The notes beneath the pieces are model-generated. The model did not search any database. It was not told where the DNA came from and worked only from the letters and a program-made list of their open reading frames with translations. The position numbers and the translations under genes were made by a program. A stretch of 64,000 nt of DNA, from positions 99,434 through 163,433 of IMG/VR virus record IMGVR_UViG_3300012007_000007; one strand, given 5' to 3'. The first letter of the stretch is position 1. Each line of letters begins with the position of its first letter. The stretch is from a virus (taxonomy: Duplodnaviria > Heunggongvirae > Uroviricota > Caudoviricetes). Shown here piece after piece: positions 35,910 to 55,036 of the stretch.

Positions 35910-35943
35910 AAGCGCCACCAAAAGGTGGCGCTTTTTCTTTGGC
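35910..35943 (+). terminator. intrinsic terminator
   Basis: AGCGCCACCaaaaGGTGGCGCT + ttttcttt. Confidence 0.6.
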
Positions 35944-35968
35944 TATGTCCACCCAAAGTGTTGCTAGT
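35941..35968 (+). repeat. 28-bp repeat GGCTATGTCCACCCAAAGTGTTGCTAGTT (copy A, direct)
   Basis: inverted partner at 36719..36747; third copy at 54508..54533. Confidence 0.6.
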
Positions 35969-36083
35969 TTGAAAAATCGCTGAAGTTAGTCCAATTTCGA
36001 CATCATTCCACTGTTCCTTCTTGATGGCAACCCGGTTTGTTCCTTCTTCGTCACCAAACACTTCGGCCATCTTCGCCTGGGCA

Positions 36084-36602
36084 TTAAGGTAAGCCAGGTT
36101 GCCCATATTGCCTAGACTTCGGGCAGGACGCGAGATATTCGTCCTGTGCCTTGACACGGGAATACTTGGTGTTCAGCTCCAGGGAGAGCCACGGTGCCGT
36201 CCCGCCATTCGCGTCGATTGCGCGTTCGAGAAACCTTTTTGCCTGCATAACGAGATGGTGCCTGGTCTGCATCATCCGTTCGGATGACTGGCGGCAGTCG
36301 ATTATGAGCTGTTGCCCGCGGACCCGTCTTTCCACCAAGGTCGTCCCGGTGCATTCGTCATACTGCTTCCCGTCCTTCAACTGATAATTGTACAACGCGC
36401 ACTGCATTGCTGTCATCTTCGCTATACCGCACATGTGAGCAGCAGTCTGTTCCCATAATCTAGCGCGTTCATTTGCGACGAGCGCCATGAGATATAGTTC
36501 CCTGGCCGAGAACCCGTGGTGTTTCTTCCTCATTTTCGCTCCGTCACAAGCGTTCTTCATTTTCGGGTGTGGTGTCGCGACTATTTCTTTCATGCCAGCC
36601 AT
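36084..36602 (-). CDS. hypothetical Cys/His-containing protein inside the inverted-repeat-flanked cassette (172 aa)
   Basis: AAGGAG RBS 8 nt upstream of ATG (residue 17 of ORF 36084..36650). Confidence 0.5.
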   Translation of the reverse strand: MAGMKEIVATPHPKMKNACDGAKMRKKHHGFSARELYLMALVANERARLWEQTAAHMCGIAKMTAMQCALYNYQLKDGKQYDECTGTTLVERRVRGQQLIIDCRQSSERMMQTRHHLVMQAKRFLERAIDANGGTAPWLSLELNTKYSRVKAQDEYLASCPKSRQYGQPGLP

Positions 36603-36652
36603 ACTTATCTCCTTGGCTAATTTACTCACCCAATAAATTATATTTTTCAATA

Positions 36653-36664
36653 CAAATATAGCAA
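36653..36664 (-). promoter_or_regulatory. class-III motif (minus strand TTGCTATATTTG)
   Basis: ~45 nt upstream of ATG 36602. Confidence 0.45.
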
Positions 36665-36718
36665 TTTATGGGGGCTGCTGGTTAAATGCTGTTTTAGCCA
36701 ATTTTGGACGTTTATATC

Positions 36719-36747
36719 AACCAGCAACACTTTGGGTGGACATAGCC
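36719..36747 (-). repeat. 28-bp repeat copy B (inverted)
   Basis: reverse complement reads GGCTATGTCCACCCAAAGTGTTGCTGGTT. Confidence 0.6.
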
Positions 36748-36753
36748 TTTTCT

Positions 36754-37008
36754 TTAGTCGAGCATACCAAGCTCAACTATTTCCGGAACAGTCAGTTCGT
36801 GGTAGGAGAGCATACCTGCAGCGGAAAGTTCCTGTTCCTCGAAGATGCATTCCGAATCCCTGTACCTGTCGCAGCAGTCCGGGCCCCACGTTATTTCCAG
36901 TATAAGCCTTTTGCGGCCATCGGGTACCTGCCTTACCTTGACGGCCTTACCCAAGTTAAGCATCGTTTTGTCGTTCTTGTTTTTCTTCTTAGTTAGTCGC
37001 AGATTCAT
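36754..37008 (-). CDS. hypothetical protein (84 aa)
   Basis: ORF track. Confidence 0.45.
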   Translation of the reverse strand: MNLRLTKKKNKNDKTMLNLGKAVKVRQVPDGRKRLILEITWGPDCCDRYRDSECIFEEQELSAAGMLSYHELTVPEIVELGMLD

Positions 37009-37025
37009 GTCCGCTACCCCCTTCG

Positions 37026-37556
37026 CTATCCTGCGAGCGCCTTGTACGCTTTCATGAGCTTTTCGACTTTCTTATCGTCGACACGCTTCTCCGGTTTCGT
37101 TTCGGCGCGGTACCTCTTCACGCGAGCGTATACGCACTGCTTCGACACCCCTATCCTGGCGGCAATCTCGTCGTAGGTCAGACCCTCGGCGTGCATCTGG
37201 AACAGCAGCGCATCGCGTGCCATGACCTTTTCATGCCTGAAAGTTCCCTTCTCCATCGGAACGCACCGGATATTCCCGGAATCATCCCGCATAACCCGGA
37301 TACCCATCATGTATCCACGGTGGAAACAGGCCGCGAAAGAGCGTCCTTCCGGGAGCTTCCCGCTGCGCAGGGTGTCCATTTCCTTCTTCGTCCATTTCTT
37401 CCTCCCGGTCGGCGGGTCCGGTGGCTCGATGCCGAGTGCATGCGCCTTCAGGTAGCACTGCCCGTACGTACGCTTTGCGGGTATCTTGCCGCGGCCGAGA
37501 AGTTCAAGTTCCTTGTCCGTCCAGCGACGGTACTTGCGTTTAGTGAATGTTGACAT
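37026..37556 (-). CDS. HTH DNA-binding protein with two SANT/Myb-like repeats (176 aa); putative transcription regulator
   Basis: duplicated W-x-(K/D)-E..L/R units; C-terminal LTYDEIAARIGVSKQCVYARVKRY (sigma region-4-like HTH). Confidence 0.5.
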   Translation of the reverse strand: MSTFTKRKYRRWTDKELELLGRGKIPAKRTYGQCYLKAHALGIEPPDPPTGRKKWTKKEMDTLRSGKLPEGRSFAACFHRGYMMGIRVMRDDSGNIRCVPMEKGTFRHEKVMARDALLFQMHAEGLTYDEIAARIGVSKQCVYARVKRYRAETKPEKRVDDKKVEKLMKAYKALAG

Positions 37557-37575
37557 AGTTAATTGTCTCCTGTTT

Positions 37576-37812
37576 TTAACATTGCCTGTTGCACTGTATC
37601 TCGTTTGAGTGTTCCGGGTAGTCGTAACCGAAACGGTCCTTCAAGTACTTAACCATCTGTTCGCGGAAACCGAGGTACTTCCCGGCATCAAGACGAGAGA
37701 TGACCTGTTCCTTTGTCGCGGGGGTGTAGTAATCATCACCATGTCCCGCGATGCACCCGCCACCGCAGCCACATACGCAGCAGTCGCCGCTGCAGTCGCT
37801 ACACATCTTCAT
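37576..37812 (-). CDS. Cys-rich small protein (78 aa)
   Basis: MKMCSDCSGDCCVCGCGGGC N-terminus; internal start of ORF 37576..37983. Confidence 0.4.
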   Translation of the reverse strand: MKMCSDCSGDCCVCGCGGGCIAGHGDDYYTPATKEQVISRLDAGKYLGFREQMVKYLKDRFGYDYPEHSNEIQCNRQC

Positions 37813-38467
37813 TCTCGGCCTCCTCGGAAATTGCCATAACCTCATCCAGGTCGCCAAATTCCATCTCGGTATCGAGCCTCTGGAGCTGGTCGATTGTGGC
37901 CACGTCGAATCGGACTTCGACAACGGTAGGCACGCCGTCGTGGTCGATACGCTCGATGAGACGGGTAATCTTGCCACGGTCACTCGGCTTGAAGGAGTTC
38001 ACCGGGATATACACGGGAGCGTCCGGCTGCTTGCCGGCTTCCCAGTCGATGCCGCTCATCTGCATGTAGTGAATGAATTTCTCGCGGACATCCCTGCGCA
38101 TTTTCTTGATTTCATCGGGGTCGTCGTTGCGGGTCTGTGGCCATACCTTGCGGTCCTTGCAGCGTGATGCGAAGTGGGCCTCGTGGTCGTCACTGCACAG
38201 GAAGTAGGCGAGGTCGAACTTTTTTCCAATGTAATGGTAATACGGCTCGGGGTCCGGCTTTCCGGTGCCGTCCTTGTATGAAAACATGATACTTTTGATG
38301 TTGGTTTCGCTGCCGTCACAGTCGCGAAGGGGCATATCGGACTTGTTGTCGCTGAACACCACGGAAACGTCGAAGTCCGTCTCGGGATACTTCTTCAGGA
38401 TGACGTCGATGTCGCTCTTGTCAATCCACTTGGCTCCGAACACCGAGAAGATGTTTCTGTAAGACAT
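37799..38467 (-). CDS. hypothetical acidic protein (222 aa)
   Basis: ORF track. Confidence 0.55.
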   Translation of the reverse strand: MSYRNIFSVFGAKWIDKSDIDVILKKYPETDFDVSVVFSDNKSDMPLRDCDGSETNIKSIMFSYKDGTGKPDPEPYYHYIGKKFDLAYFLCSDDHEAHFASRCKDRKVWPQTRNDDPDEIKKMRRDVREKFIHYMQMSGIDWEAGKQPDAPVYIPVNSFKPSDRGKITRLIERIDHDGVPTVVEVRFDVATIDQLQRLDTEMEFGDLDEVMAISEEAENEDV

Positions 38468-38604
38468 GGTAAGTTCTCCTTTAATTGTATTGTTCTTGTC
38501 TCTTATACCCTAAATATACATTAATTTCGGCAAAAAGTCAATACTTTTATTGTAAAATTTAGTTTACTTACCATTTCCGCATCATATTTATGGGATTCAT
38601 AATT

Positions 38605-38619
38605 AAATATAGCAAAAAA
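38605..38619 (-). promoter_or_regulatory. class-III motif
   Basis: TTTTTTGCTATATTT immediately after the terminator hairpin. Confidence 0.45.
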
Positions 38620-38643
38620 CTCCTGTTGCGGTCAACAGGAGTT
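38611..38643 (-). terminator. intrinsic terminator (minus strand)
   Basis: AACTCCTGTTGACCGCAACAGGAGTT + TTTTTT. Confidence 0.6.
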
Positions 38644-38665
38644 ACGAACATTTAATTGCGAAACG

Positions 38666-39082
38666 TTACTTGATTAGTTCGAACACGAGGTTCCTGAATA
38701 TTTCCCAGTTATTGTCCAGCTGCGTGTACACGTCTATCTTTTTCTCGACTTCCATGTCCGGCCATCCCGTAACTACGACCTCGTACTCGCATTTTGCCCA
38801 GAAATAATACTGGCACTTGTGGCGGAGTTCCATCTCTACAAGTTCATCGACAGTATATTTGCGCTTGCGCTTGCGCTCGGCCCATACCACGGTGTCTACA
38901 ATTTGCCGGTACTTGTCAGGGTCCTTTCCGTAGGCGGCATCAAGACGTTTCTTGAGTTTTTTAAGCCCTTTCAGTACGACGCCCATCTGGCTGAATTCGA
39001 ATATGTTTTCGAACACGATGCCACGGCCGAATGCGTTGTGTATGACAAAAAATTCAGGCTTCTTTTTTCCCTTTCGTTTCAT
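38666..39082 (-). CDS. hypothetical basic protein (138 aa)
   Basis: AAGGAGG RBS 5 nt upstream of ATG. Confidence 0.55.
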   Translation of the reverse strand: MKRKGKKKPEFFVIHNAFGRGIVFENIFEFSQMGVVLKGLKKLKKRLDAAYGKDPDKYRQIVDTVVWAERKRKRKYTVDELVEMELRHKCQYYFWAKCEYEVVVTGWPDMEVEKKIDVYTQLDNNWEIFRNLVFELIK

Positions 39083-39135
39083 AATGCCTCCTTGGCTCGG
39101 TTCAAAAAATACCACCACCTACCGGCGGTGGCCTA

Positions 39136-39876
39136 TCAAGGATAGTATCTCAACCCGTCGTAGTTGAACTTGGTCGTCGGGTAGTCCATGTTCCCCACGT
39201 CGACCAGGCGGTCAATCCACTCGGAAAGCGGTACGTCGTTCTTCAGGAGGACGTTCGCGTCACGCCAGAACTTGCATGTCTCGTCCACGATGGTCTGGTT
39301 CGGGACTCCCGGGAAACCGCACGCCCTCGCCTCGCCACTGTTCGAGATGAACATGGAGGACCAGAACCCGTACAGGTGGTTCGCCTCGGCGAACTCGGAT
39401 GCGTGGCACCATACAGCTATGACGCGCCTGGCGTGGATATCCTTTGTCATTGAGGAATTGACGACTGTATCCATGACGTGCCGCGTATATTTCCTTGGCT
39501 TGGGTTCTTCGGCCTTCTTTTCCGCCATCGGGCCGATTTCACCGGGCAAGGCCTCGTTCTGCTTCAGCTTGGCGTATTCCTCCGCCATGCTTAGCACCTT
39601 GCCGCCGCGCTTCATGCCGTAGTCGAACCCCCATGAGCTGTAGGGCCTTTCCTCGTATTCCTGCACGACGAAACCGAGCAAACCGCGCGGCGTCCCGTGG
39701 CCGCACATGATGAGCGTGTCGTCGGCTTCCTTGATTGCGTTGTGCACGTCTTCCTTGGTGTAGTTCGTGTCATCGGCCAGACGAAGTACGTCCACGTCCG
39801 GGATTCCTTTCCACAGAAGCGGGATGCTGGCACAGTCCACGTCACCCAGGTCAGAATATATAACTTTGATTGACAT
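39136..39876 (-). CDS. hypothetical protein (246 aa)
   Basis: ORF track. Confidence 0.55.
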   Translation of the reverse strand: MSIKVIYSDLGDVDCASIPLLWKGIPDVDVLRLADDTNYTKEDVHNAIKEADDTLIMCGHGTPRGLLGFVVQEYEERPYSSWGFDYGMKRGGKVLSMAEEYAKLKQNEALPGEIGPMAEKKAEEPKPRKYTRHVMDTVVNSSMTKDIHARRVIAVWCHASEFAEANHLYGFWSSMFISNSGEARACGFPGVPNQTIVDETCKFWRDANVLLKNDVPLSEWIDRLVDVGNMDYPTTKFNYDGLRYYP

Positions 39877-39908
39877 CGTGTCCTCCGATTCAATAGTTTA
39901 TGGCATAT

Positions 39909-40121
39909 TCAGTTGAATTCTTCGGCCAGATAGACACGTTGCTCGGCCGGAATCCACTTGACGAAGCCAGTTTCCACCTTCTCCAGTTTCACTATAAGCA
40001 GCCCGGTTTTTGTGGATACCACCGGATTGGCAACTTTCATATAGGTCCACTTGGACTTAGGAGTAAGCTTGATGTAAGTTCCGCATAATAGGTCGCCGAT
40101 TAGTGCTGTTCGGTGCGGCAT
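39909..40121 (-). CDS. hypothetical protein (70 aa)
   Basis: ORF track. Confidence 0.45.
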   Translation of the reverse strand: MPHRTALIGDLLCGTYIKLTPKSKWTYMKVANPVVSTKTGLLIVKLEKVETGFVKWIPAEQRVYLAEEFN

Positions 40122-40140
40122 GAAGTCATCCTCGAATATA

Positions 40141-40167
40141 AATTAAAAAGCAGCGGTTCCCGCTGCC
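40141..40167 (-). terminator. intrinsic terminator (minus strand)
   Basis: GCAGCGGGAACCGCTGC + TTTTTAATTT. Confidence 0.55.
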
Positions 40168-40173
40168 GGTAAT

Positions 40174-40314
40174 TCAGGTTTTCCTGGGAAGGTCCGCCAG
40201 GTCCGCCCGGAGCTTGTACATGATTTTGCGTTCCCGGGCAACCAGGGCCGACACTATGCCAACCCCGAACAGGGCGAGCAGCTTCCACAGTATCTTGCGT
40301 TTCTTTCCGCTCAT
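40174..40314 (-). CDS. small membrane protein (46 aa)
   Basis: MSGKKRKILWKLLALFGVGIVSAL; ATGA overlap with the upstream gene. Confidence 0.3.
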   Translation of the reverse strand: MSGKKRKILWKLLALFGVGIVSALVARERKIMYKLRADLADLPRKT

Positions 40315-40544
40315 CGGGTGGTAGCCCTCATGGCGCAGTCGCAGGCGCAGTCGCTGACTTCCTGTTTGCAGGCGTCCTGTTCGACGTGTCGAAAGCCGTG
40401 GTTCAGGTCGATGGACTGCTCGGAGCCGCAGTCCTTCTTCTGGTCGGGCTCCTTGGCCGTGATAAGTGTACGAATCTTGCGGAAAGCGAATACGCTCCCG
40501 GCTACTGCCAGTGCCGCGATGGCTACTTTTGTCTTTGTTGTCAT
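40311..40544 (-). CDS. small membrane/Cys protein (77 aa)
   Basis: AGAGAGG RBS; TM helix then DCGS...CACDC. Confidence 0.45.
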   Translation of the reverse strand: MTTKTKVAIAALAVAGSVFAFRKIRTLITAKEPDQKKDCGSEQSIDLNHGFRHVEQDACKQEVSDCACDCAMRATTR

Positions 40545-40574
40545 GTTGTGACCTCTCTTTTGGAATGTTTGACA

Positions 40575-40590
40575 CAAATATAGCAAAAAA
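40575..40590 (-). promoter_or_regulatory. class-III motif
   Basis: TTTTTTGCTATATTTG ~30 nt upstream of ATG 40544. Confidence 0.45.
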
Positions 40591-40641
40591 CTTCCGAAAC
40601 GATGCATAAACTGTTTGAAAATTACCGCCAGGAAACCGGAC

Positions 40642-41067
40642 ATGGACCAGAATCTTGAAACTACGCTCGCCGAGGGATATTCACGAATCGCAGGCAGGCC
40701 ACTCAGCGAGGGCATTTTCAGCTGGCTGTTCGGCAAGAAACTGAGCCCGTCGGACGAGCTATTCAACCGGGTGAGCGACCTCTTCGAGCGGTTCTACGAC
40801 CGCGAGGTAGCCCGTGACGGGCGCACCTACCGGGGAACGCCGGGGGAATACAGCACGCAGGCCCTGCTAGACCGCGTGGACACCCTGAAGAACTCCGTCC
40901 TGTCGGAAATCCGCAGATTTAGCAGCAAGTGCGACAAGGCGTTCAAGGAACGCGACAGGGCGTTCAAGATGCGCGACAGCTACAACGAAAAGCTGAACTA
41001 CATGCGCGACGCCCGGGACGACTACAGGAGCCGCCTGTACGAGCAGCGGAGGAACCGAAACAAGTAG
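40642..41067 (+). CDS. hypothetical basic coiled-coil protein (141 aa)
   Basis: in-frame ATG of ORF 40615..41067; the only plus-strand gene in this block. Confidence 0.5.
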   Translation: MDQNLETTLAEGYSRIAGRPLSEGIFSWLFGKKLSPSDELFNRVSDLFERFYDREVARDGRTYRGTPGEYSTQALLDRVDTLKNSVLSEIRRFSSKCDKAFKERDRAFKMRDSYNEKLNYMRDARDDYRSRLYEQRRNRNK

Positions 41068-41388
41068 CTACAGAAGGTCAAGGTTGCCTTCTATGTCGGC
41101 ATCGCCTATCCTTTCCGCCGTGCTGTCCGCCGGTTTTCCGTCCGCCACCCTCCCGGCGCACTTCAGGAACGTCTCCTTGGCCTCGCCGGAAACAGTCGCC
41201 GGCCCGGTGGACACCAGCACGGCCCCGACCAGGGCTTTGATGTCATCCGGCACCAGGGTGTAGTCCGGCCCTCCCGGCATATCCGGCGGCTGGATTCCCA
41301 TCGCAGCAATGACGTTGATTATCGGTGCCTCGCTGCCGTTGTCCTGGCAAGCGGACACCAGCTCGCTAAAAGCCTCGTTCGTAGTCAT
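41068..41388 (-). CDS. hypothetical protein (106 aa)
   Basis: ORF track. Confidence 0.5.
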   Translation of the reverse strand: MTTNEAFSELVSACQDNGSEAPIINVIAAMGIQPPDMPGGPDYTLVPDDIKALVGAVLVSTGPATVSGEAKETFLKCAGRVADGKPADSTAERIGDADIEGNLDLL

Positions 41389-41656
41389 ATCTCGCCCCCG
41401 TTTCCACTATCTTGGCGGACACCACTTCCCCGGGAACCCCGACGCCGTAGGAGTCTACCTTCCAGTCATGTACCAGCTCGATTACGTCGGCATTCTCGTG
41501 GTGGCCGCGTACGAACTTCACCTTGCGGTTCTTCTTCCCGTCGGCACGCACCGTCATCATGCGTCCGCGGATGAACCCGTCCTTTATTAACTCGCTCTCC
41601 ACGAACCCGTACGGTCTTCCCGGGAGGTGGTCGACGTAGTATTCGACATCAATCAT
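41366..41656 (-). CDS. hypothetical protein (96 aa)
   Basis: ORF track. Confidence 0.5.
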   Translation of the reverse strand: MIDVEYYVDHLPGRPYGFVESELIKDGFIRGRMMTVRADGKKNRKVKFVRGHHENADVIELVHDWKVDSYGVGVPGEVVSAKIVETGARYDYERGF

Positions 41657-41988
41657 CTTATCTCCTTCTTCAGCCTGCGTCTGTATCCTTTCAGCAGTTT
41701 AAGTTTTTCCCGGCTGGCGGCAACCCGTACCATCCTGGCCGTGGCCTCGGCAACCGTCAGGTAGTCCTCGTACCCGTCATCCGTCTCGGCCCGCTTGTCC
41801 CGGAGCCTCACCGGCAGTTCCCTTTCCTCCAGTTCCCTCTCGACTTCGCCAATCTGGCCGTCCACCCATTCTACAGCTCCATCAAGCTGTCCAGTTCCCT
41901 TCCGGTTTTCCGGTCGTCTATCTGGTCTATCTGACCCGTTATGCTGAGGGTGTACTTCATTAGGTTTCTTAAATCTGTGTATGCCCAC
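41653..41988 (-). CDS. hypothetical protein (111 aa as drawn; true start probably nearer 41880)
   Basis: ORF track; 5' third overlaps the next gene. Confidence 0.3.
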   Translation of the reverse strand: MGIHRFKKPNEVHPQHNGSDRPDRRPENRKGTGQLDGAVEWVDGQIGEVERELEERELPVRLRDKRAETDDGYEDYLTVAEATARMVRVAASREKLKLLKGYRRRLKKEIR

Positions 41989-42473
41989 GTTCCGCTCCTT
42001 GTCCTGTCGGAATACTTGACCACCTTGCAGTACTTGATTTCCGACGTGGTGACTTCTATCCTGCCGTACTCGCCCTTGTCGACCATGAGGCGCAGGTTGC
42101 CCGCCGAATCGGTAAGCACGGTAGGCCAGGTCCTCACCAGCGATTCCAGGTAGGCGACCTCCCCGCAGAACTTCCCGTACTTTTGCTGGCCCCTTTCCTC
42201 GTCCAGCATGCTGACCCCGGTCAGCCTAATCGTCGGGGGGTTTATCTCCCTGTTGTACGTGATGGCCACTTCCTTCACCCCTAGGGTAAGCGTGGCCATG
42301 CTGAACCCCCTCCACATCAGCACGGTGTTCCATTCGTCGCCCGCGGGGACCTCCGCGGTGCATACCGGGGAAATGTCCCGCCACATCTTCAGCGCGTCGT
42401 CAAGTATCTTCCTGGCCCCGTCGGTGGAACCCTTGGGTTCGCGCTTGTTTTCCTTTTTCTTCCTGCCGAACAT
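41871..42473 (-). CDS. hypothetical protein (200 aa)
   Basis: internal ATG (residue 33) of ORF 41871..42569, tightly packed with the neighbour. Confidence 0.5.
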   Translation of the reverse strand: MFGRKKKENKREPKGSTDGARKILDDALKMWRDISPVCTAEVPAGDEWNTVLMWRGFSMATLTLGVKEVAITYNREINPPTIRLTGVSMLDEERGQQKYGKFCGEVAYLESLVRTWPTVLTDSAGNLRLMVDKGEYGRIEVTTSEIKYCKVVKYSDRTRSGTWAYTDLRNLMKYTLSITGQIDQIDDRKTGRELDSLMEL

Positions 42474-42477
42474 CAGC

Positions 42478-42780
42478 CTACCTGTCGTGATTGTACCAGG
42501 CGAAATACTCTTCCCTGTCGGGTGACTTGGCGAAGGAATTGTACTCGCCGTACACCTTCTCCATGTCATTGAACGACGCTCCTATGTCCTCGAGCATGTC
42601 CAGGAAGATTTCCCTGGATATGGTAACGAGCCTTTCCTGCATACGGTTCCTGATTGCGGAAATGTGCTCGTTCTTGACTGTGTTTCCCGAGACATGCATG
42701 AACACGGACGTGCCGTGTATCCCGTCGCACATCTGCATCATCGCGTCGCCCAGTACCATGTCGGAATGTTCTACTGGCAT
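42478..42780 (-). CDS. hypothetical protein (100 aa)
   Basis: internal ATG (residue 74) of ORF 42478..42999; the N-terminal extension is Pro/Gln junk. Confidence 0.45.
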   Translation of the reverse strand: MPVEHSDMVLGDAMMQMCDGIHGTSVFMHVSGNTVKNEHISAIRNRMQERLVTISREIFLDMLEDIGASFNDMEKVYGEYNSFAKSPDREEYFAWYNHDR

Positions 42781-43322
42781 GGCTGGGCCTCGTCGATATC
42801 CAGCTCGTCGAGCTTCACTAGTTCGTACTTTTTCGGACGCGCGAAGCCGTACGGGATGAGACGGTCCGTTACGAGTTCCGGCTCGGATGTTTCCGGTATC
42901 GGCAGGAAACCCGTTACTAGGTTGTACGTAAGGTTGGGGCTGTTGCGGCGGTTGTAACGGTCGACACGGGCAAGCAAAGGCACTCCCAGGAAGTCGCATT
43001 CGTCGAACACGCCGTCCTTGAAGTACTCATTGCGTTCCAGCCACTTGTACAGTTCGTCGCAGTCATTGCTCTCGGTGAGCCCGCACAGCAGCTTGCACAG
43101 CGGGCTGCCCTCGTTGATTGACACGTCGAACGGCTTGGTGCTGACGTAGCACACGCTGTCACCGCGGTGCACCTGCAGCAGGTACTCGCCGTACGTCCGG
43201 CGGGAAACCCCGCCCGATTCCTTCGGGTACACCATGCCTACGATGTGGGCGGGATATACGCCCGGGGCGAGGTCCAGCCTGGGAGTACCCAGCTTTTTAA
43301 GTCTTGAAATTGATACTGGCAT
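42771..43322 (-). CDS. hypothetical protein (183 aa)
   Basis: ORF track. Confidence 0.55.
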   Translation of the reverse strand: MPVSISRLKKLGTPRLDLAPGVYPAHIVGMVYPKESGGVSRRTYGEYLLQVHRGDSVCYVSTKPFDVSINEGSPLCKLLCGLTESNDCDELYKWLERNEYFKDGVFDECDFLGVPLLARVDRYNRRNSPNLTYNLVTGFLPIPETSEPELVTDRLIPYGFARPKKYELVKLDELDIDEAQPCQ

Positions 43323-43333
43323 TGAATTTTCTC

Positions 43334-43708
43334 CTATACAACCTTGATTCTTGTCACGAGGCCGCTGAAAGTGGCCCCGTCGTTCCTAGTATGGGTAAGC
43401 TCGACGGTTCCAGGGCTCAGCTGCACCTGCCGCGCCGATTGCTTGCCCTTCACCGTCTGGTCCCCGGTCTCGGCGAAGAATTGCTCCATGCTCCAGTTGA
43501 GGTCGTGCACCGCGTCCTTCTTGGAATGGTAGAAAGTTCGAGTGGTACTGGCAAGGGTCGACATGTCGTCGCTCCTGTATGTCGTCACGGTGAGCATGTA
43601 TATGTCGTTGTTCTTGCGCACGGCGGACAGGGAGGACTCAAGCTCGCGCACCTTCTTGCGGAGCTCATCCACTTCCTTGGTTTTCTTGTTAGTTACTGTT
43701 CTTGTCAT
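43334..43708 (-). CDS. hypothetical protein (124 aa)
   Basis: ORF track. Confidence 0.5.
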   Translation of the reverse strand: MTRTVTNKKTKEVDELRKKVRELESSLSAVRKNNDIYMLTVTTYRSDDMSTLASTTRTFYHSKKDAVHDLNWSMEQFFAETGDQTVKGKQSARQVQLSPGTVELTHTRNDGATFSGLVTRIKVV

Positions 43709-44670: not shown

Positions 44671-44717
44671 GGTGATTGTTCCTTTTATTAAGTTTTAATT
44701 GTATTGAAATTGTATTC

Positions 44718-44754: not shown

Positions 44755-44776
44755 CTGGAAAATGCACAATTTTGGA

Positions 44777-46257: not shown

Positions 46258-46302
46258 AGTTCCTTCCTAGTTAATAGATTTTCCCTTCCGTGGCTAGCTT
46301 CG

Positions 46303-47562: not shown

Positions 47563-47570
47563 ACCAAAAA

Positions 47571-47586
47571 CAAATGTAGCAAAATG
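47571..47586 (-). promoter_or_regulatory. class-III motif variant (TTTTGCTACATTTG)
   Basis: only ~10 nt upstream of ATG 47562. Confidence 0.35.
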
Positions 47587-47622
47587 AAGATGCCCCGGAA
47601 CCGGTCCGGGGCGTTTTCGCCG

Positions 47623-47907
47623 CTATTTCTTGTATATCCGTCGCATCACCAGCAGCCCCGTCGTCAGTATCGTCGCTACCGTGTAGTTGAAGTACAGCGG
47701 CCACTGCCATTCCCCGGTCACGCAGTTGGTGTACAGGACGAAAGCGCAGCTTCCGAGGTTACCTACGTAGGCCAGCGCGAAGAACCCGTACGATAGCCCG
47801 GTATCCTTCTTCTTCCACGCCTTGCGGACCTGAGGGGCCAGGTTGAATGCGAATGCCACCGCACCCGCACCTCCCAGAAGCCAGAACAGAATCCCTACCG
47901 CGTCCAT
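47623..47907 (-). CDS. PQ-loop / SemiSWEET-like small membrane protein (94 aa)
   Basis: 3 TM helices; PQVRKAWKKKDTGLS motif. Confidence 0.4.
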   Translation of the reverse strand: MDAVGILFWLLGGAGAVAFAFNLAPQVRKAWKKKDTGLSYGFFALAYVGNLGSCAFVLYTNCVTGEWQWPLYFNYTVATILTTGLLVMRRIYKK

Positions 47908-49154
47908 CAGCCCGCCTTGATTTCCCCCACGAGTTTATCGAACCACTCCCGCGTCATCTGCCGCCTGTCCTTGCGATGGCGGTACACGGCCAGCCGGAGC
48001 TTTCTGAGCGTATGTCCAAACTCCTTGCCCTGCTTCACGCCGGCATCGAGCAACGCCCTCGTCATGTCCTTCATTGTGGGCCACTCGGTCGCGTGCTCCC
48101 GCAGCTTTATCTCGTCCGTCCGAGAAATTACCAGGTAGCCCTGTCTCGAGAACACGTAGGCCCTGAACAGTTCCCATCGGTCGTCGGTAACCAGGTCGAC
48201 AAGGTCTACAAGGTCGAGCGTACCGGCGAGGTACTTCTTGAATCTTTCGGTAATATACTCGACGTTCCTCGCGTCCTCCCTGGTGCACTTCAGGGCCTGC
48301 ATCGAGTACTTGTCCGGGAGTATCAGCGGGAACAGGTATTCGGGCTTCCACTGCACGTCACTACCCAATGTCGCGCACGCCGTAGCCAATCTTGCAATGC
48401 ACTGTCTGGCAAAGTCCCAGTCGATATTCAGGCCAGTTCCCTTCCCGATGTCCCATGACGCCATCCAGCCGAGCATCGCGGCGACCTGCTGCACTCCGTA
48501 CTCGGCACACTTGGCAAGCTCGTCGTGAATCCTTTCCTTCGATATGTTGGCCAGCCTCGGCGCAAGCACCCTCGCGGCATTCAGCGTGGCAACATCTATC
48601 TTCATGCCGAAACGAGCGGCGAACCGGCACATCCTCACTATCCTTAGCGCGTCCTCGGTGAACCGCTCGGTAGCATCGCCGACGGTCCGCAGGTGGTTCT
48701 TCGTAATTGATTCAACGCCGCCGTGGTAGTCGACCACACGGTAATCGCCGTCCAGTCCCATTGCATTGGCGGTGAAGTCCCTTCTCGCCGAATCCTCCTC
48801 AAAGCTCCCGGCCCACTCTACGCTATCCGGGTGCCGTCCGTCGGTATAGTCCCCGTCCTTCCTGAACTGGGTCACCTCGAACATCGTGTCCTTCCACTCG
48901 ACCAGCACGGTACCGTGCGCCTCGCCGTTGTTGCTCTCGCACCTGAACGCCTTCTTCAGCTCCTCGATTGGCATGTTGGTCGCTATGTCCACGTCGTGTA
49001 TGCCGGGATGCTTCTCCAGCCCCAGCTCCCAGCGGACAAGGTCCCTCACGCAGCCCCCGGCAAGGAGTGCGTCATATCCGTGTTTACCAATCTCCCTGAC
49101 TAAACCGAGCCCCTTCTCGACGAGGGGGATGGTCCTTGCGTTCAATATAATCAT
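47907..49154 (-). CDS. tRNA nucleotidyltransferase (CCA-adding enzyme / poly(A) polymerase head + HD domain) (415 aa)
   Basis: GGCVRDLV ... HDVDIAT nucleotidyltransferase motif; C-terminal HD-like LRIVRMCRFAARFG. Confidence 0.7.
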   Translation of the reverse strand: MIILNARTIPLVEKGLGLVREIGKHGYDALLAGGCVRDLVRWELGLEKHPGIHDVDIATNMPIEELKKAFRCESNNGEAHGTVLVEWKDTMFEVTQFRKDGDYTDGRHPDSVEWAGSFEEDSARRDFTANAMGLDGDYRVVDYHGGVESITKNHLRTVGDATERFTEDALRIVRMCRFAARFGMKIDVATLNAARVLAPRLANISKERIHDELAKCAEYGVQQVAAMLGWMASWDIGKGTGLNIDWDFARQCIARLATACATLGSDVQWKPEYLFPLILPDKYSMQALKCTREDARNVEYITERFKKYLAGTLDLVDLVDLVTDDRWELFRAYVFSRQGYLVISRTDEIKLREHATEWPTMKDMTRALLDAGVKQGKEFGHTLRKLRLAVYRHRKDRRQMTREWFDKLVGEIKAG

Positions 49155-49168
49155 TTGGCCAGAATCCT

Positions 49169-49184
49169 TTCGAGTTGCGCAAAT
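49169..49184 (-). promoter_or_regulatory. class-III motif variant (TAAGCTAGATTTGCGC)
   Basis: ~30 nt upstream of ATG 49154. Confidence 0.35.
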
Positions 49185-49189
49185 CTAGC

Positions 49190-50974
49190 TTATTTCCCGA
49201 TAAAAGTGTCAAGGTCCTCCTTGAACACGCACCAGTCGGGGAACGCGTAATCCCCGTGCGACCGAAGTATCATTATCTGCCTCGGCCTCGGAGGCTCCGG
49301 CCAGTTGAATATGCAGTCCGTCAGGTATATCAGACCGTCATACTTGTAGCGCTCCGGACCCAGCTTCCGCAGGACGCAGTCGGGGTCGGTCCGGCCGCCA
49401 CCGTATATCGCCATGTCCCTTATCGACCTCGGGGTGTCGAATACCGGGCTGCACACGGCGTCCCAGTACACTATGTCTACCGAGAGCCCGTTCACGATGT
49501 TCTCCATCACCGTCAGACAGTTGAGTATCGCGTCGCCCTGGTACATCGAGCCGCTCACGTCTATGCAGAACAGTATCCTCTGCGTCTCCTCGTACAGGTT
49601 TCCCGGGGCAATCATCCCGTACCTCAGGTACTTCCTGTTGCGGCGGCTCCAGCTCGGGTTGAACTCCTCGTCCTGCACGCTCGTCATGAACCGGCGGAAC
49701 ATGGCCTCCCGGTCGACCTTCACACGGTTCGCGTTCCTCAGCATCAGTGGCAGGGGGCCGCGCATCCTGTCGAACATTCCCTTGTCCAGCGCATCCAGCA
49801 CCTTCGCCGTGGTGTTGTCGCTCGCCACCGAGTCGTTGTCCCACCTGGCCAGGTCGCCCGCCGCGTTGGACAGCGAGAAGTACTGCGACATTCTCTCCAT
49901 GTCGTCCTTTGGAGAATCTCCCCGTCCTTCGCCGGAAGACCCGTCGTCGACCGGCTCGCCGCCTTCACCCTCCTCGGTACCGCCGTCGGAATCGCCACCT
50001 TCCGTAGAGTCGCTGCCGCCGTCCGAATCACCCTCGCCGGAATCTCCCGGGGAACCGTCGGGAACCGAGCCACCGTCCTGGCCCTCGCCGGATGAACCGT
50101 CCGCGTCTTCACCGGGAGAACCTTCGCCGCCATCGTCGAATGGTTCGCTGCCGGACTCTTCACCGGGTTCTTCCTGGCTTTCACCGCCTTCATCGGGTGA
50201 ACCTTCGCCGTCGCCATCGCCGCCGGACTCCCCTTCGCCGGAATCACCCTCGTCGCCTCCCTTGCCCTTCTCCTCCCGGCTCTTGCCCTCTCCGCCGGGC
50301 TCGTCGCCGGTTTCCTCTGAGTCGTCCCCGTGCTCGCCGGATTCGCCATGGCTTCCGCCCGACTCTTCCTGCTTCTGCTCGGTCTTCTTCCCGGATTTCC
50401 CCGGGCTGTCCGAGGTTTCCTTCCGGGTTTCCCGGGAGGTTTCCCGGGAATTCTCCTCCCGCTCCTCGTCGTCGGACTCCTCGGGTTCCTGGGAGGCGTA
50501 CTCCTCCTTCAGAATCTCGAACAGCTTTTCCAGCGTAAGGTCGGTTTCCGGGTGGAACCCGTGCTTCTTCAGCACCGGCCAGTGGTTCCAGTAGCTCGGG
50601 AATATGCGGTTGACTATCTCCAGGTTGTTTCCTATCGAAGTATCGACTACCTTCCTGGCATACTCGGCGACGACTATGTCGCTGGCCAGCTTCAGCATGG
50701 ACAGCGGTTCCTGCTTGCGCTTGTCGCAGTGGTGCAGCGCAATCTTCAGGCACTGCATGTACACCACCGCCCCGAGCAGGGAAGGTTCCAGGCGGGTGAC
50801 GAAGTCCACGTTGTACTCGAGCACCGGCATTCCGCCGTCAACGCCGGTACGGACGGTAACGGAAGTGTCCTCGGTAGGTATGCAGTTCGCCGACATGTAC
50901 ACCGGGAGAAGCCCCGGTGCCGTCTTCGACATCAGCAGCACTGCCTGTCTCATCGCGGCGTTGGCCGCTTCCAT
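49190..50974 (-). CDS. CobT-like von Willebrand factor A domain protein with long acidic linker (594 aa)
   Basis: C-terminal vWA MIDAS motif FCIDVSGSMY; ~200-aa D/E/G/S-rich linker; start set at MEAANAAM, since the upstream 87 codons are Arg/Gly junk. Confidence 0.6.
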   Translation of the reverse strand: MEAANAAMRQAVLLMSKTAPGLLPVYMSANCIPTEDTSVTVRTGVDGGMPVLEYNVDFVTRLEPSLLGAVVYMQCLKIALHHCDKRKQEPLSMLKLASDIVVAEYARKVVDTSIGNNLEIVNRIFPSYWNHWPVLKKHGFHPETDLTLEKLFEILKEEYASQEPEESDDEEREENSRETSRETRKETSDSPGKSGKKTEQKQEESGGSHGESGEHGDDSEETGDEPGGEGKSREEKGKGGDEGDSGEGESGGDGDGEGSPDEGGESQEEPGEESGSEPFDDGGEGSPGEDADGSSGEGQDGGSVPDGSPGDSGEGDSDGGSDSTEGGDSDGGTEEGEGGEPVDDGSSGEGRGDSPKDDMERMSQYFSLSNAAGDLARWDNDSVASDNTTAKVLDALDKGMFDRMRGPLPLMLRNANRVKVDREAMFRRFMTSVQDEEFNPSWSRRNRKYLRYGMIAPGNLYEETQRILFCIDVSGSMYQGDAILNCLTVMENIVNGLSVDIVYWDAVCSPVFDTPRSIRDMAIYGGGRTDPDCVLRKLGPERYKYDGLIYLTDCIFNWPEPPRPRQIMILRSHGDYAFPDWCVFKEDLDTFIGK

Positions 50975-50988
50975 TCTGCGGGAATCAA

Positions 50989-51306
50989 TCAAAACACTTT
51001 CCTGTATGGCTGAATTGTGTACTGCACCCTGCGTGTTCCGATTCCCGGCCGTCCGCCGGAATAGTATACCTCGCTCTCGATTGCGGCCACCCTTCCCGGA
51101 TACAATTTCTTGTTTCCCCTGACGGCCCTCACGGCGCGCTCGAACATCGGCTCGTAGTCGTAATCCTTGTATCCCGGGTATGTCTTGACCGGCTGGTACC
51201 AGATTGTAACCCCGCGCCTGCGGTGGCATTTCCATCCGAAAGTAATCTGGCGCAGCCTATTGCTTATAGCATTATGGAAAAGTATTCTCTTTATCTTGTT
51301 CAGCAT
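50989..51306 (-). CDS. hypothetical protein (105 aa)
   Basis: AAGGAAAGACTAT RBS; internal ATG (residue 20) of ORF 50989..51363. Confidence 0.45.
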   Translation of the reverse strand: MLNKIKRILFHNAISNRLRQITFGWKCHRRRGVTIWYQPVKTYPGYKDYDYEPMFERAVRAVRGNKKLYPGRVAAIESEVYYSGGRPGIGTRRVQYTIQPYRKVF

Positions 51307-51351
51307 ATAGTCTTTCCTTGCAACAAAAAATGTGGCCTCGGTGGCCACATT

Positions 51352-51364
51352 CAAATATAGCAAA
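51352..51364 (-). promoter_or_regulatory. class-III motif
   Basis: TTTGCTATATTTGAA; here the hairpin TGTGGCCACCGAGGCCACA follows the motif. Confidence 0.4.
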
Positions 51365-51378
51365 TTTGCAAGGTTCCG

Positions 51379-51678
51379 TTAGAATATGTATGCCTTGCTG
51401 AGTCCGAGCTTGTCGCAGCCTTTCGCCACGTATTCCTTCATGAAGAGCACGTCGCCCAGGTAGACCTTCTCGCCCAGGTACTTGCGGAGCATGTGCTCGA
51501 TGCACTCGTCGACGGTTCCTATCTGTCTCACGCGTGGACCGGTGAAGCCCCACTCGGCGAACTCGCTCACGCCCAGCTGGACAAGCCCTTCCTTCAGGCA
51601 GTCCGACATTGTCATTATTTCACCTACGCTCGCATTTCTTCCGATAATGCAGGCTGCCGCTTCTTCTACGCACATCAT
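51379..51678 (-). CDS. hypothetical protein (99 aa)
   Basis: ORF track. Confidence 0.5.
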   Translation of the reverse strand: MMCVEEAAACIIGRNASVGEIMTMSDCLKEGLVQLGVSEFAEWGFTGPRVRQIGTVDECIEHMLRKYLGEKVYLGDVLFMKEYVAKGCDKLGLSKAYIF

Positions 51679-51682
51679 ATCT

Positions 51683-52042
51683 CTACCCCTTTATATAGTC
51701 TGCTGGAACAGCACCCGCTTTCTCTGGCGGCCATTCAGTTGTTCTTGTTGCCGTAACCACCGGCGTGTCCACCGACCAGTGGTCTCCTAGCCAGACAGGG
51801 TTCTGCGCCGGTTTCCCGGTACCGCCGTCTCCTGATGGAATCACCCTGGTAAAATCCACCACGCCCCCATTGCTCGCCTGCTTACCGGAAAGCTCATCGA
51901 GAACGGCCAGCTTCGCCTTTGCCTCGATTAGTCCATTGGTGAAAGAGTCAGGACAAGTCCCAATCCTGGTCATCGGCTCGGCAACCGCTATCAAGTCCTC
52001 CAGCGCATCCCTGGCGCACTTGAACATCAAATTGTATTCCAT
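51683..52042 (-). CDS. hypothetical protein (119 aa)
   Basis: ORF track. Confidence 0.5.
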   Translation of the reverse strand: MEYNLMFKCARDALEDLIAVAEPMTRIGTCPDSFTNGLIEAKAKLAVLDELSGKQASNGGVVDFTRVIPSGDGGTGKPAQNPVWLGDHWSVDTPVVTATRTTEWPPEKAGAVPADYIKG

Positions 52043-52073
52043 ATGTCCAAATATCCCATGTTAAGTTATGCCA

Positions 52074-52088
52074 CAAATATAGCAAAAA
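52074..52088 (-). promoter_or_regulatory. class-III motif
   Basis: TTTTTGCTATATTTG ~30 nt upstream of ATG 52042. Confidence 0.45.
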
Positions 52089-52178
52089 CCACCTACCGTG
52101 AATTGCCAGATGCAACCTGTCAGAAGAAGGAGCATGAGCACCATCCCCGCTACCAGTATCGCATACGCTATCTTACTT

Positions 52179-53024
52179 TCAGGCATCCGGCACCTCCACC
52201 AAGTAAGTTCCCGCTTCCCTGTTCAGCATGAACGCGTTCCTTTCCTCGGGATAGCCGAGCGGGTTGCACACTATCCTGACGCGGTTCCCGGTAGGAGCGG
52301 TGTACACCGTGTCGAACTGGTTGTGCGTGTGGCCACACTGCCATACCGTACCGTCGTCCAGCATGTCGAGGAACCTCTGCGCGTCGAAATAGAACATCGC
52401 CGTCACCGGGTCATCCCGGTACACCTCGGCAACCCCCATCTGCAACGGGCAGAAGTGCGTCATGACTATCCGGGGCCTCGCCTTGCATACAACCTCGAGA
52501 TTCTCCAGCTCCCTCGCCAGGATGTCCGGGAACACCTGGTTCCTGTAGTTCCACAGCCTGCCGTCGAACCACCGGTTGCTCCAGAAGTCGAGCGCGTTGA
52601 ACGGCTCTCCGTTGTCTACGCGGTAGCCCAGGTCGCATACGCCCATCGTTCCTCCGAACAGCCCTGACTCATCGACCTGTCCGTCAAGGATATGGACGTT
52701 GGGGCAGCTTTCCGAGATGCTCTCCCGGACATACTCCATCCTCTCCTCGCTGGTGTCGAACAGCCTTCCCGGGAAATCCCGCTTCACCACCAGGTCATGA
52801 TTGCCGAACACCACGTAGACCTCCCGGTACTTCCGGGAGATGAACCGCAGGAACGAAAGCTGTACCCCCTCGTAGTTGGCGACATCGCCGGCTATGCATA
52901 CCGCGTCGGCAGGGGTGAAGTAGTTGCCGTACAGTGCTTCGAACATAGGGTGGAGAACGGCATCGCTGTCGCTCAGTGCCGAATAGAAATCTACATGTAT
53001 ATCCGAAATGAGGAATACTTTCAT
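52179..53024 (-). CDS. calcineurin-like metallophosphoesterase (281 aa)
   Basis: ISDIHVD, GDVANY, GNHD, GHTH motifs; GGAGG RBS 9 nt upstream. Confidence 0.7.
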   Translation of the reverse strand: MKVFLISDIHVDFYSALSDSDAVLHPMFEALYGNYFTPADAVCIAGDVANYEGVQLSFLRFISRKYREVYVVFGNHDLVVKRDFPGRLFDTSEERMEYVRESISESCPNVHILDGQVDESGLFGGTMGVCDLGYRVDNGEPFNALDFWSNRWFDGRLWNYRNQVFPDILARELENLEVVCKARPRIVMTHFCPLQMGVAEVYRDDPVTAMFYFDAQRFLDMLDDGTVWQCGHTHNQFDTVYTAPTGNRVRIVCNPLGYPEERNAFMLNREAGTYLVEVPDA

Positions 53025-53060
53025 GGATGCGCCTCCGGGAACATTGCTTGCCCCAGGATG

Positions 53061-53076
53061 CAAATATAGCATTTTT
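53061..53076 (-). promoter_or_regulatory. class-III motif
   Basis: AAAAATGCTATATTTG ~40 nt upstream of ATG 53024. Confidence 0.45.
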
Positions 53077-53080
53077 CTGG

Positions 53081-54184
53081 CTAGAGGCTCTTCAAGGGAG
53101 TCAAAATTCCGTCCTGGACCCAGTCGTTCAGGTAATTGGCATCGATGACATTGTACGGGAGGCTCCCGGATACGGAATTGACTGCCGGCTTTCCCCAGTC
53201 AGGGAAGTATTTCACGATGTTGTATACGGCGATATCGGAATCGAGCGACATGCTCTCCAGCTTCCAGGAAATCACCTCGGTGGCATCGGGAATTGCGTTG
53301 TCCGATACCAGACAGTATCCAATCTTGTTTCCCGGTAGGTGCCAGGCGAGTAGCTTGCCGGCCTGCGGAGTGCGGGCCTCTTCGACCAGTCCGTTGTCCT
53401 CCACGAGTATGCCGCCCTCCAGCATGTCCTCTATCATGGAGTTGGGGAACAGCTGCGCACTGAGCCTGCTCCTGTTCAAGGTCAGTCTGCGCTTGAAGTT
53501 GGCGTCGTTGCACTTGCAGCACTTCGGCTCTATGCCGAACCACCGGGAGAACCCGTAAAGCGCCCACTGGAGGTTGTCCTTGTGTACACGGGATACCGCG
53601 GTAACTCCCGGCTTGGCGTTCGGTGCAAGCAGCAGGACGGAACCGTCGTTGTCGATACGGTTCTTCATGCCGTTGTTCAGTGTCAGCGGAGTGTCGTTAA
53701 CGACGGTAATCTTGTAGTTGGAACTCGAGTTGATGCGGTCGCACCACCTGGTGAACCTCGGGCCGTGTGTCTCCTCGTTGTCCTCCCGCTCGGGGGAGTA
53801 GGCGAGGTAGGCGTGAATCATCTCGTGGATGAGCACCTCGTCGAGTGTCTTCGGAGTATAGTCGAAGGCGTTGGACAGCTTGATGCCGCAATCCACCAGT
53901 GATGACTGGTTGAATGGCCCACGCCTCCAGGTGGTGGCACAGTATCCGAGCTTCTTGGTGGAATTGCAGAATCCTATCGGCATTGTCCTGGGAAGATACC
54001 CCTGGTCGCCCCCGAAGAATTGATTGCGGAACTCGGTATACTTCCGGTCCAGGTAGTCCTTGCCGTACTCGGCGGGTGTCTTGGCAATTTCGGGTTCAGC
54101 CATTTCGAGCAGGGTAAATTCCCTGCATTCCATGTAGCCCTTCCTGAGGGCCTCCATCAGCGATGTGTCGATTGTATTGGCCAT
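53081..54184 (-). CDS. SprT-like zinc metalloprotease domain protein (367 aa)
   Basis: LIHEMIHAY (HExxH) followed by ETHGPRF, typical SprT spacing. Confidence 0.6.
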   Translation of the reverse strand: MANTIDTSLMEALRKGYMECREFTLLEMAEPEIAKTPAEYGKDYLDRKYTEFRNQFFGGDQGYLPRTMPIGFCNSTKKLGYCATTWRRGPFNQSSLVDCGIKLSNAFDYTPKTLDEVLIHEMIHAYLAYSPEREDNEETHGPRFTRWCDRINSSSNYKITVVNDTPLTLNNGMKNRIDNDGSVLLLAPNAKPGVTAVSRVHKDNLQWALYGFSRWFGIEPKCCKCNDANFKRRLTLNRSRLSAQLFPNSMIEDMLEGGILVEDNGLVEEARTPQAGKLLAWHLPGNKIGYCLVSDNAIPDATEVISWKLESMSLDSDIAVYNIVKYFPDWGKPAVNSVSGSLPYNVIDANYLNDWVQDGILTPLKSL

Positions 54185-54223
54185 TTCTAGCCAGTTTATC
54201 TGTATGCACCATACGTATGGTAC

Positions 54224-54481
54224 TTACACGTCGATTATTGTGCCGTATGCACCTACGGCCTGCATACGCTGCTCGGGACAGCGAGTATTTACTGTCTTGT
54301 CGCAGGAATAGCCGCAATGCGGGCACCTGCATGTATAGTTCACATAGTCAAACGAGCCGTGACCTTGACGGGTGACCTTGGCCTCCCCGAGGTCGGCATC
54401 GAAAATGCAGTCGCATTCCATGCACACGAAACGAATTTTCTTGGTAATACCTTCGCGAACGATTTCCATGTGTTGTTTCAT
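54224..54481 (-). CDS. zinc-ribbon protein (85 aa)
   Basis: CMECDC ... CRCPHCGYSC; internal ATG of ORF 54224..54523. Confidence 0.45.
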   Translation of the reverse strand: MKQHMEIVREGITKKIRFVCMECDCIFDADLGEAKVTRQGHGSFDYVNYTCRCPHCGYSCDKTVNTRCPEQRMQAVGAYGTIIDV

Positions 54482-54507
54482 CCTTTTGGACACACCGTTA
54501 AACAATA

Positions 54508-54533
54508 GGCTATGTCCACCCAAAGAGTTGCTT
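54508..54533 (+). repeat. 28-bp repeat copy C (GGCTATGTCCACCCAAAGAGTTGCT)
   Basis: 24/25 identical to 35941 copy; direct orientation. Confidence 0.55.
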
Positions 54534-55029: not shown

Positions 55030-55036
55030 TGTTTCC

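Follow-up and report, generated by a model that had tools for sequence, protein, structure and literature searches.

The window analysed here, 64 kb (64,000 nucleotides) of large-phage DNA from IMG/VR record IMGVR_UViG_3300012007_000007, contains two short insertions, elements A and B, each bounded by copies of a 25-bp repeat. This repeat, GGCTATGTCCACCCAAAGTGTTGCT, is very probably the terminal inverted repeat (TIR) of an IS1595-family insertion sequence (IS), and the window elements are very probably two transposase-less derivatives of that IS. Elements A and B are non-autonomous mobile insertion cassettes (MICs), inserted by transposition. An earlier sequence-only reading of the window had reported three 25- to 28-bp copies, with an inverted pair around a one-gene cassette, and had listed the footprints of a mobile cassette as one of several explanations, next to an invertase switch, a large inversion, and operators for a late regulator.

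The 25-mer pattern was scanned on both strands of the window, with chance levels taken from dinucleotide-preserving shuffles. The 25-mer GGCTATGTCCACCCAAAGWGTTGCT was present at 35941-35965 (+), 36723-36747 (-), and 54508-54532 (+), no other copy was found in the window within 3 mismatches, and 100 shuffled windows gave 0 matches, confirming the three copies and the inverted pair reported earlier. The first two copies extend into 29-nt arms (35941-35969 and 36719-36747) that are 97% complementary and spaced 749 nt apart. A search allowing up to 6 substitutions revealed a fourth, degenerate copy with 5 mismatches at 54894-54918 (-), at a depth where shuffled windows gave 0 matches at ≤5 mismatches and 0.05 at ≤6. 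This copy pairs with the one at 54508-54532 to make a second inverted pair of 411 bp. The + copy at 54508 is real, as the sequence-only reading had it, but more than a sequence preceding gene 54224: it forms one end of a 411-bp element with open reading frame (ORF) 54562..54852 (-).

Directly outside both inverted pairs lie perfect 8-bp direct repeats: TTTTCTTT at 35933-35940 and 36748-36755 around pair A, and AAACAATA at 54500-54507 and 54919-54926 around pair B. Direct repeats outside inverted repeats are a signature of transposition, and they delimit an element A of 807 bp (35941-36747) and an element B of 411 bp (54508-54918), each flanked by a target-site duplication (TSD).

The 25-bp repeat also marks the ends of more than 15 other elements outside the window. 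An exact 23-base core of the 25-mer was found in 9 stretches of 8 IMG/VR contigs (15 to 248 kb) and in 7 stretches of 6 contigs from metagenome-assembled genomes (MAGs) of Fibrobacter succinogenes, Fibrobacter sp., Fibrobacteraceae, and Hallerella. Occurrences of the 25-mer outside the window, in rumen and gut viral contigs and MAGs, are mostly inverted pairs 0.28 to 6 kb apart with unrelated flanks. Perfect 8-bp direct repeats lie just outside the ends in 13 of 15 such pairs (collected loci L003, L005 inner, L005 outer, L007, L008, L011, L013, L014, L016, L012/L015, L002/L004, L027, and L028, the last a partial copy of L027). The duplicated sequence differs from pair to pair; A+T makes up 87.5% of the 14 distinct duplications, a tabulated set that includes the two from the window. 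In an alignment of 34 ends, the sequence is essentially invariant (~100%) over exactly 25 bp, and conservation is lost abruptly at position 26.

L013 and L014 contain the same 2.9-kb element, at 98% identity, in different MAGs and with different duplications. At L005 3210-3797 (the same as L009 2272-2859), one element is nested within another of the same family, each with its own duplication. The inner one is a 456-bp cassette with a 115-aa ORF and TSD ATTGCTAT; the outer one is a 132-bp shell resembling a miniature inverted-repeat transposable element (MITE), with TSD AACGTAGA, and its copy of a promoter motif, TTGCTATATTTG, is split by the insertion. Deleting the inner element and one copy of ATTGCTAT restores 12/12 bases of TTGCTATATTTG in the outer shell. 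The L007 element, at 285 bp, has a 62-aa ORF.

Elements of 1.75 to 6 kb contain a transposase ORF of 344 to 353 aa between the same TIRs. Proteins from L008, L002, and L010 scored 173 to 181 bits against NF033547, “IS1595 family transposase” (cut-off, 75), and 43 to 48 bits against NF050000, the IS1/IS1595 N-terminal zinc-binding domain (cut-off, 28), and the L008 protein, the one compared with PF12762, DDE_Tnp_IS1595, matched it at 7e-10. Homologues 64 to 70% identical to the L008 transposase were found by tblastn inside the TIR pairs of L002, L010, L011, L012, L013, L014, and L016. Membership in the IS1595 family is recognised by an N-terminal zinc domain (in all groups except IS1016), TIRs, and an 8-bp TSD (PMC8101967). 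With transposase domain, zinc domain, TIRs, and 8-bp TSDs all present, the element lineage is assigned on its sequence to this family. The TIR begins GGCTATG, which fits the GGCnnTG form of ends that, together with a DDNK catalytic signature, marks the ISPna2 subgroup; the lineage may belong to this subgroup. Judged by its shared ends, the IS circulates in Fibrobacter/Fibrobacteraceae and in viral contigs.

Elements A and B are not themselves autonomous ISs, encoding only pA (172 aa) and pB (96 aa), neither of which matches transposase families. They have what defines a MIC, namely, IS ends, a gene unrelated to transposition, no transposase, and a TSD (definition in PMC3129680). The mobile-cassette explanation is borne out by TIRs with 8-bp TSDs, by the same ends around IS1595 transposases, and by the same cassette in unrelated contexts.

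The geometry of element A, inverted repeats around a promoter and one gene, would also fit a site-specific invertase that flips this 750-bp segment to produce phase variation, with the third copy allowing a 17.8-kb inversion. A 176-aa neighbouring protein (37026..37556) has a helix-turn-helix (HTH) that in PHROG weakly matches (E 0.002) the corresponding HTH of DNA invertases. However, Pfam and PHROG scans of pA and its neighbours found no resolvase, invertase, integrase, or tyrosine-recombinase catalytic domain, and inversion does not create 8-bp direct repeats such as those found beyond the inverted repeats of both window elements and of 13 further pairs. The inverted repeats also bound transposase genes, and the third copy pairs with the fourth, 411 bp away. 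The two copies proposed as the ends of a 36.7- to 54.5-kb inversion belong to separate elements, and no evidence for that inversion was found. The sequence-only reading had suggested comparing the orientation of the segment in relatives; relative to the two distinguishable subterminal regions, internal orientation is constant in the window, L027, and L002/L004. An invertase is, on this evidence, a very improbable explanation.

There is likewise very little chance that the 25-mers serve a phage late-gene regulator as operator or activator sites. Two copies do lie upstream of - strand genes (36602 and 54481), and one of them stands ~60 nt ahead of a promoter motif found at 10 places in the window. 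Yet the 64 kb contain only 4 copies, the promoter motif has 10 sites without a 25-mer, the orientation of the copies relative to the downstream gene is inconsistent, and both convergent gene blocks end upstream of copy 1. In bacterial MAGs, moreover, the 25-mer forms the outermost 25 bp of elements that have a transposase and target duplications. Kinship of the 25-mer with the repeat of the phage's clustered regularly interspaced short palindromic repeat (CRISPR) array, whether as a solitary repeat, an anti-repeat, or a mini-array remnant, was rejected as chance and is barely conceivable: GTCCACC is common to the 25-mer and the 3' end of the array repeat (60664-61571), and GTGTTGCT to the 25-mer and a degenerate repeat at 60737, but the longest shared words are 7 to 8 nt (p ~0.03 to 0.04 from shuffles, noticed post hoc), the 25-mer lacks the hairpin part of the repeat, and it surrounds transposases in many contigs and MAGs without CRISPR context.

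Element A can be divided into four modules, which were resolved by BLAST against the collected loci and by alignment (Table 1). Its left end spans 36011-35941, and 35932-36011 is 90% identical to L002 2019-2097 and 91% identical to L027 2451-2526. In an alignment with L004, L010, and L001, homology at the right end stops right after the start codon, and a different ORF lies beyond it in each element. The right-end promoter has 10/12 matches. The cargo gene is a chimera in which the native start of the captured core is M24 of pA, preceded by 23 in-frame codons from the IS module. The tail encoded by the IS-internal remnant is present in P0005 and P0010.

Homologues of the captured core in L025, L024, and L026 are genes in tightly packed operons, without a TIR in L025 and L026 and with one solo TIR downstream in L024. 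Nothing else in these three stretches (6.4 to 6.7 kb) resembles the window at a comparable level. The solo TIR (L024 3757-3781), on a 425-kb contig, has 1 mismatch, sits downstream of the pA homologue P0003, 30 nt away, and has no partner within 3 kb; an older cassette with the same gene may have left it behind. On the 36-kb contig of L025, a TnpB-type ORF (4291-5421, -; OrfB_IS605 plus Cas12f1-like_TNB) is located ~0.9 kb from the pA homologue, as a further mobile element beside a member of this gene family.

A relative of element A is found in L027, a 4,059-nt contig with a 1,974-bp transposase-less cassette that contains four ORFs, including the pA homologue P0010. This cassette corresponds to the L002 element minus 934 bp of transposase gene, and it occupies a different site with a different TSD, ATATAAAT. 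Element A has the appearance of an L027-like cassette reduced by further deletion. For pA, AlphaFold predicts a hairpin of two 44-residue helices (predicted local distance difference test score, 74), for which Foldseek returned no match at E ≤0.001 in PDB or BFVD. Neither pA nor pB had a family match in Pfam, PHROGs, NCBIfam, or PADLOC. Among the cargo ORFs of other elements, one L011 ORF has a methyltransferase domain, besides which there were only weak matches or matches of unknown function.

Element B consists of one good TIR, one degenerate TIR, and pB with a short leader and GGAG. Because element B has no copy of the promoter motif, pB may be expressed by read-through from the adjacent tRNA cluster. 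The element recurs at 97% identity over 413 bp in L030, L031, and L032, which come from three other samples. In all three, homology ends within 2 nt of the TIRs, and these loci have no other DNA similarity to the window.

Table 1. Coordinates of elements A and B, their modules, and the adjoining terminator in the window
Feature	Position	Strand	Remarks
Bidirectional intrinsic terminator between convergent blocks	35910..35933		10-pair stem (7 G-C) on both strands
Left TSD, element A	35933..35940		TTTTCTTT, identical to 36748-36755
Left TIR, element A	35941..35969	+	Family-conserved core 35941-35965
Left subterminal IS sequence	35966..36011	+	Upstream of transposase gene in autonomous copies
IS-internal remnant	36109-36041	-	91% to L002 3664-3732; C-terminal tail of resident cargo gene, out of frame
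Cargo ORF pA, 172 aa	36084..36602	-	Chimeric: 23 IS-module codons, 419-bp captured core (36117-36535), 11-codon frameshifted end
Captured core	36535-36117	-	419 bp; 95% to L025, 90% to L024, 86% to L026
Right subterminal IS module	36600..36722	-	Promoter TTGCTA-16 nt-TATAAT (36664-36637), 5' untranslated region, AAGGAGA, ATG
Right-end module	36747-36600	-	88-90% to L004, L010, L001, L027 (over 124-154 nt)
Right TIR, element A	36719..36747	-	29-nt inverted arm
Right TSD, element A	36748..36755		TTTTCTTT; overlaps 2 nt of stop codon, gene 36754..37008 (-)
Left TSD, element B	54500..54507		AAACAATA
TIR, element B	54508..54532	+	1 mismatch to consensus
Cargo ORF pB, 96 aa	54562..54852	-	P0011 94%, P0012 92% identical
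Degenerate second TIR, element B	54894..54918	-	5 mismatches; homologous end in L030 has 4
Right TSD, element B	54919..54926		AAACAATA; 20 nt from tRNA-Ser 54946..55029

Both insertion sites are intergenic, and the neighbouring genes are uninterrupted. Genes run on the + strand up to 35887 and on the - strand from 36084 onward, and element A sits exactly at the junction of these convergent blocks, in the T-tract of the terminator at 35910-35933; the TTTTCTTT duplication starts at the final base of the terminator stem. Gene 36754..37008 remains intact despite the overlap of its stop codon with TTTTCTTT. The next ORF (37026-37556, -) encodes the 176-aa protein mentioned above, which has a C-terminal HTH_23/sigma-70 region-4-like domain and two N-terminal repeats (…WT.KE…L..GK.P…); its sequence makes it a possible phage transcription regulator. 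Element B is positioned between tRNA-Ser (54946..55029) and the ORF ending at 54224. From 54946 to 60208 (-), 13 tRNA genes are interleaved with small ORFs, among them a tRNA-Asn (57864-57939) to which ARAGORN gave the unusual anticodon ATT. Rfam detected only tRNAs in the window and nothing within elements A and B.

Exact-protein look-ups matched assemblies of one sample only, SRR948090, and an identical pA copy is found on a 222-kb contig. Independent assemblies of the same sample (L019 to L023) agree with the window in the orientation of the segment. In one of them, L019, the contig breaks off exactly at the inner boundary of the right TIR of element A, as repeats break assemblies. Among 50,697 GenBank phages, there was no megablast match to window positions 35000-38000. 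A 346-aa flanking protein had no relative in IMG/VR, and a SprT-like neighbour had relatives only at 46 to 47% identity (L017 and L018), both without a TIR.

Several observations weigh against reading the two elements as IS-derived cassettes inserted by transposition. Searches by exact junction sequence found no empty site A in metagenome and viral contigs and no empty site B in metagenome contigs; the same kind of search returned 0 matches in viral contigs for the empty L005-outer and L007 sites. Because no empty site was found and the phage was seen in one sample, the insertions are inferred from signatures and not from presence/absence polymorphism. Transposition of this IS lineage is likewise argued from signatures in the sequence, and two pairs, L010 and L030, lack matching 8-bp repeats. 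A tblastn search of the 64 kb with the L008-type transposase gave no homologue at E ≤1e-3, which would place the source of the enzyme outside the window. The end of element B with 5/25 mismatches may no longer be recognised, and one extra T relative to L027 frameshifts and truncates the tail of pA, whose gene may be decaying. The degenerate end of element B and the pA frameshift suggest that both window copies may be ageing.

In the proposed mechanism, a cognate transposase would bind the 25-bp ends and insert the element into A+T-rich DNA via 8-bp staggered cuts; the sequence cannot tell cut-and-paste from replicative transposition. Elements A and B would depend on transposase in trans because neither has a transposase gene. 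The enzyme could be supplied by the host chromosome, by a co-infecting phage (e.g., one like the 160-kb contig of L002/L004), or from elsewhere in the 222-kb genome. Such mobilisation in trans is presumed for both cassettes, with element B present in an unrelated context and L027 at another site. Element A would have originated from a larger cargo-carrying IS of the L002/L027 type, through deletion of the transposase gene and capture of the 419-bp gene core by recombination. It would have landed in the T-tract of the bidirectional terminator, and element B between tRNA-Ser and the next ORF. Transcription of the element A cargo would start from the module of promoter, ribosome binding site (RBS), and ATG at the IS right end.

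The 12-mer TTGCTATATTTG occurs 10 times in the window, against an expectation of 0.18, and every copy has the same direction as the gene downstream of it (31514, 36653, 38604, 40575, 44718, 47571, 51352, 52074, 53061, and 60440). The motif is also built into the IS right end in Fibrobacter MAGs. Since it is shared by the phage and Fibrobacter IS ends, TTGCTATATTTG is probably a host-type promoter (-35 TTGCTA) for one class of phage genes. The shared IS and promoter motif together suggest Fibrobacter as the host of this phage.

A leader motif, GGTGCTTYCAAAACGAGGAMTWAAAAC, lies just upstream of start codons at window 27360-27392, L024 3722-3754, and L005 about 3300-3340, on otherwise unrelated contigs, and is possibly another conserved promoter/RBS class of Fibrobacter phages. 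From 60 to 24550 (+), ~36 copies of a 40- to 70-nt motif, TCTAWCGGGnnnnGGATGGGATGCCCGGGAnnnCCCGGGnnnTCCCA, precede nearly every + strand gene, often after CCTCCCGGG...CCCGGGAGG hairpins with T-runs; it looks like a phage-specific promoter or leader class paired with terminators. The region 22540-23310 is G+C-rich (up to 67% GC), with imperfect 10- to 11-nt periodic repeats (CCCGGGTTGCTCCCGG...), and three tandem 33-nt units are present at 22636-22734.

The CRISPR array at 60664-61571 has 14 units with a 66-nt period, repeat GGTGTAGTCACCCCTCAAAATGGGGGTGGGTCCACC, and ~30-nt spacers, and its repeats are degenerate at the 60.66-kb end. It directly abuts a 767-aa Cas12-like ORF (61576-63879, -) with weak C-terminal matches to TnpB, Cas12f, and Cas12u (NF040570, 2e-6; PADLOC Cas12f, 2.5e-4). 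Array and ORF are probably a compact phage-encoded type V system.

To our knowledge, ISs and their non-autonomous derivatives have rarely been documented inside lytic or large phage genomes. The lineage described here links Fibrobacter, a rumen genus, to several large phage contigs through one IS1595-family element, which provides a clue for host assignment. Single small genes travel as TIR-bounded cassettes, at 95 to 97% DNA identity in otherwise unrelated contexts, and the cassettes explain assembly breaks at these sites. For annotation, the phase-variable switch and operator readings are removed, and the 25-bp sequence can be used as a probe that finds further cassettes and their cargo genes. 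What is less usual here is that the cassettes sit in a phage, that variable cargo follows a conserved expression module, and that genes travel between unrelated contexts. A more speculative possibility, to which we give tentative and limited credence, is that the lineage serves as a gene shuttle between Fibrobacter and large phages, and among phages, with the fixed promoter, RBS, and start codon of the right end acting as an “expression socket” for exchanged cargo ORFs. If this were true, transposase-less cassettes of 0.3 to 2 kb would move small phage genes, possibly for host takeover or anti-defence, into unrelated phage genomes, in a manner resembling an integron-like cassette system built on a DDE transposon.

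MITEs, MICs, solo inverted repeats (IRs), and transporter ISs are recognised IS derivatives that can be mobilised by a cognate transposase (PMC3129680). Some members of the IS1595 family carry passenger genes and are called “transporter ISs” (Siguier, Gagnevin & Chandler 2009, as cited in PMC8101967 and PMC3129680). Relatives of the window elements agree with the family in having a DDE transposase with an N-terminal zinc domain between 25-bp TIRs, as well as 8-bp TSDs, and with transporter ISs in having passenger genes (L008, L011, L013, L014, L016, and L002). The window elements differ in lacking a transposase and in residing in a phage genome, and the lineage differs in that variable cargo ORFs follow a conserved promoter/RBS/ATG module located at one end of the element. 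We know of no description of such an end module for the IS1595 family.

Smaller phage-borne elements provide a second comparison. MPME1 and MPME2, ultra-small mobile elements of mycobacteriophages, are ~440 bp long, with inverted repeats and a small ORF, and occupy varied sites in otherwise similar phages; they add a 6-bp sequence next to IR-L and not an 8-bp target duplication (PMC3029335). Elements A and B are like MPMEs in size and phage setting but have an 8-bp target duplication and an identified autonomous IS with its transposase. For MPMEs, no cognate transposase or autonomous partner is known to us. With MITEs, the elements share a short, non-autonomous, TIR-bounded, and TSD-flanked structure, with relatives here down to 132 to 285 bp (L005 outer and L007). 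MITEs are normally non-coding, whereas nearly every element here has an ORF, even the 285-bp one, and only the 132-bp L005 outer shell is without its own.

A further counterpart is MIC231 of the Bacillus cereus group, a derivative of IS231 (De Palmenaer et al. 2004, as cited in PMC3129680). Like MIC231, the window elements have cognate IS ends around genes unrelated to transposition, no transposase, presumed mobilisation in trans, and modular content. They differ in IS family (IS1595 rather than IS4), host phylum, and TSD length, in being carried by a phage, and in that one of the two cassettes has a gene core captured from another, unrelated contig.

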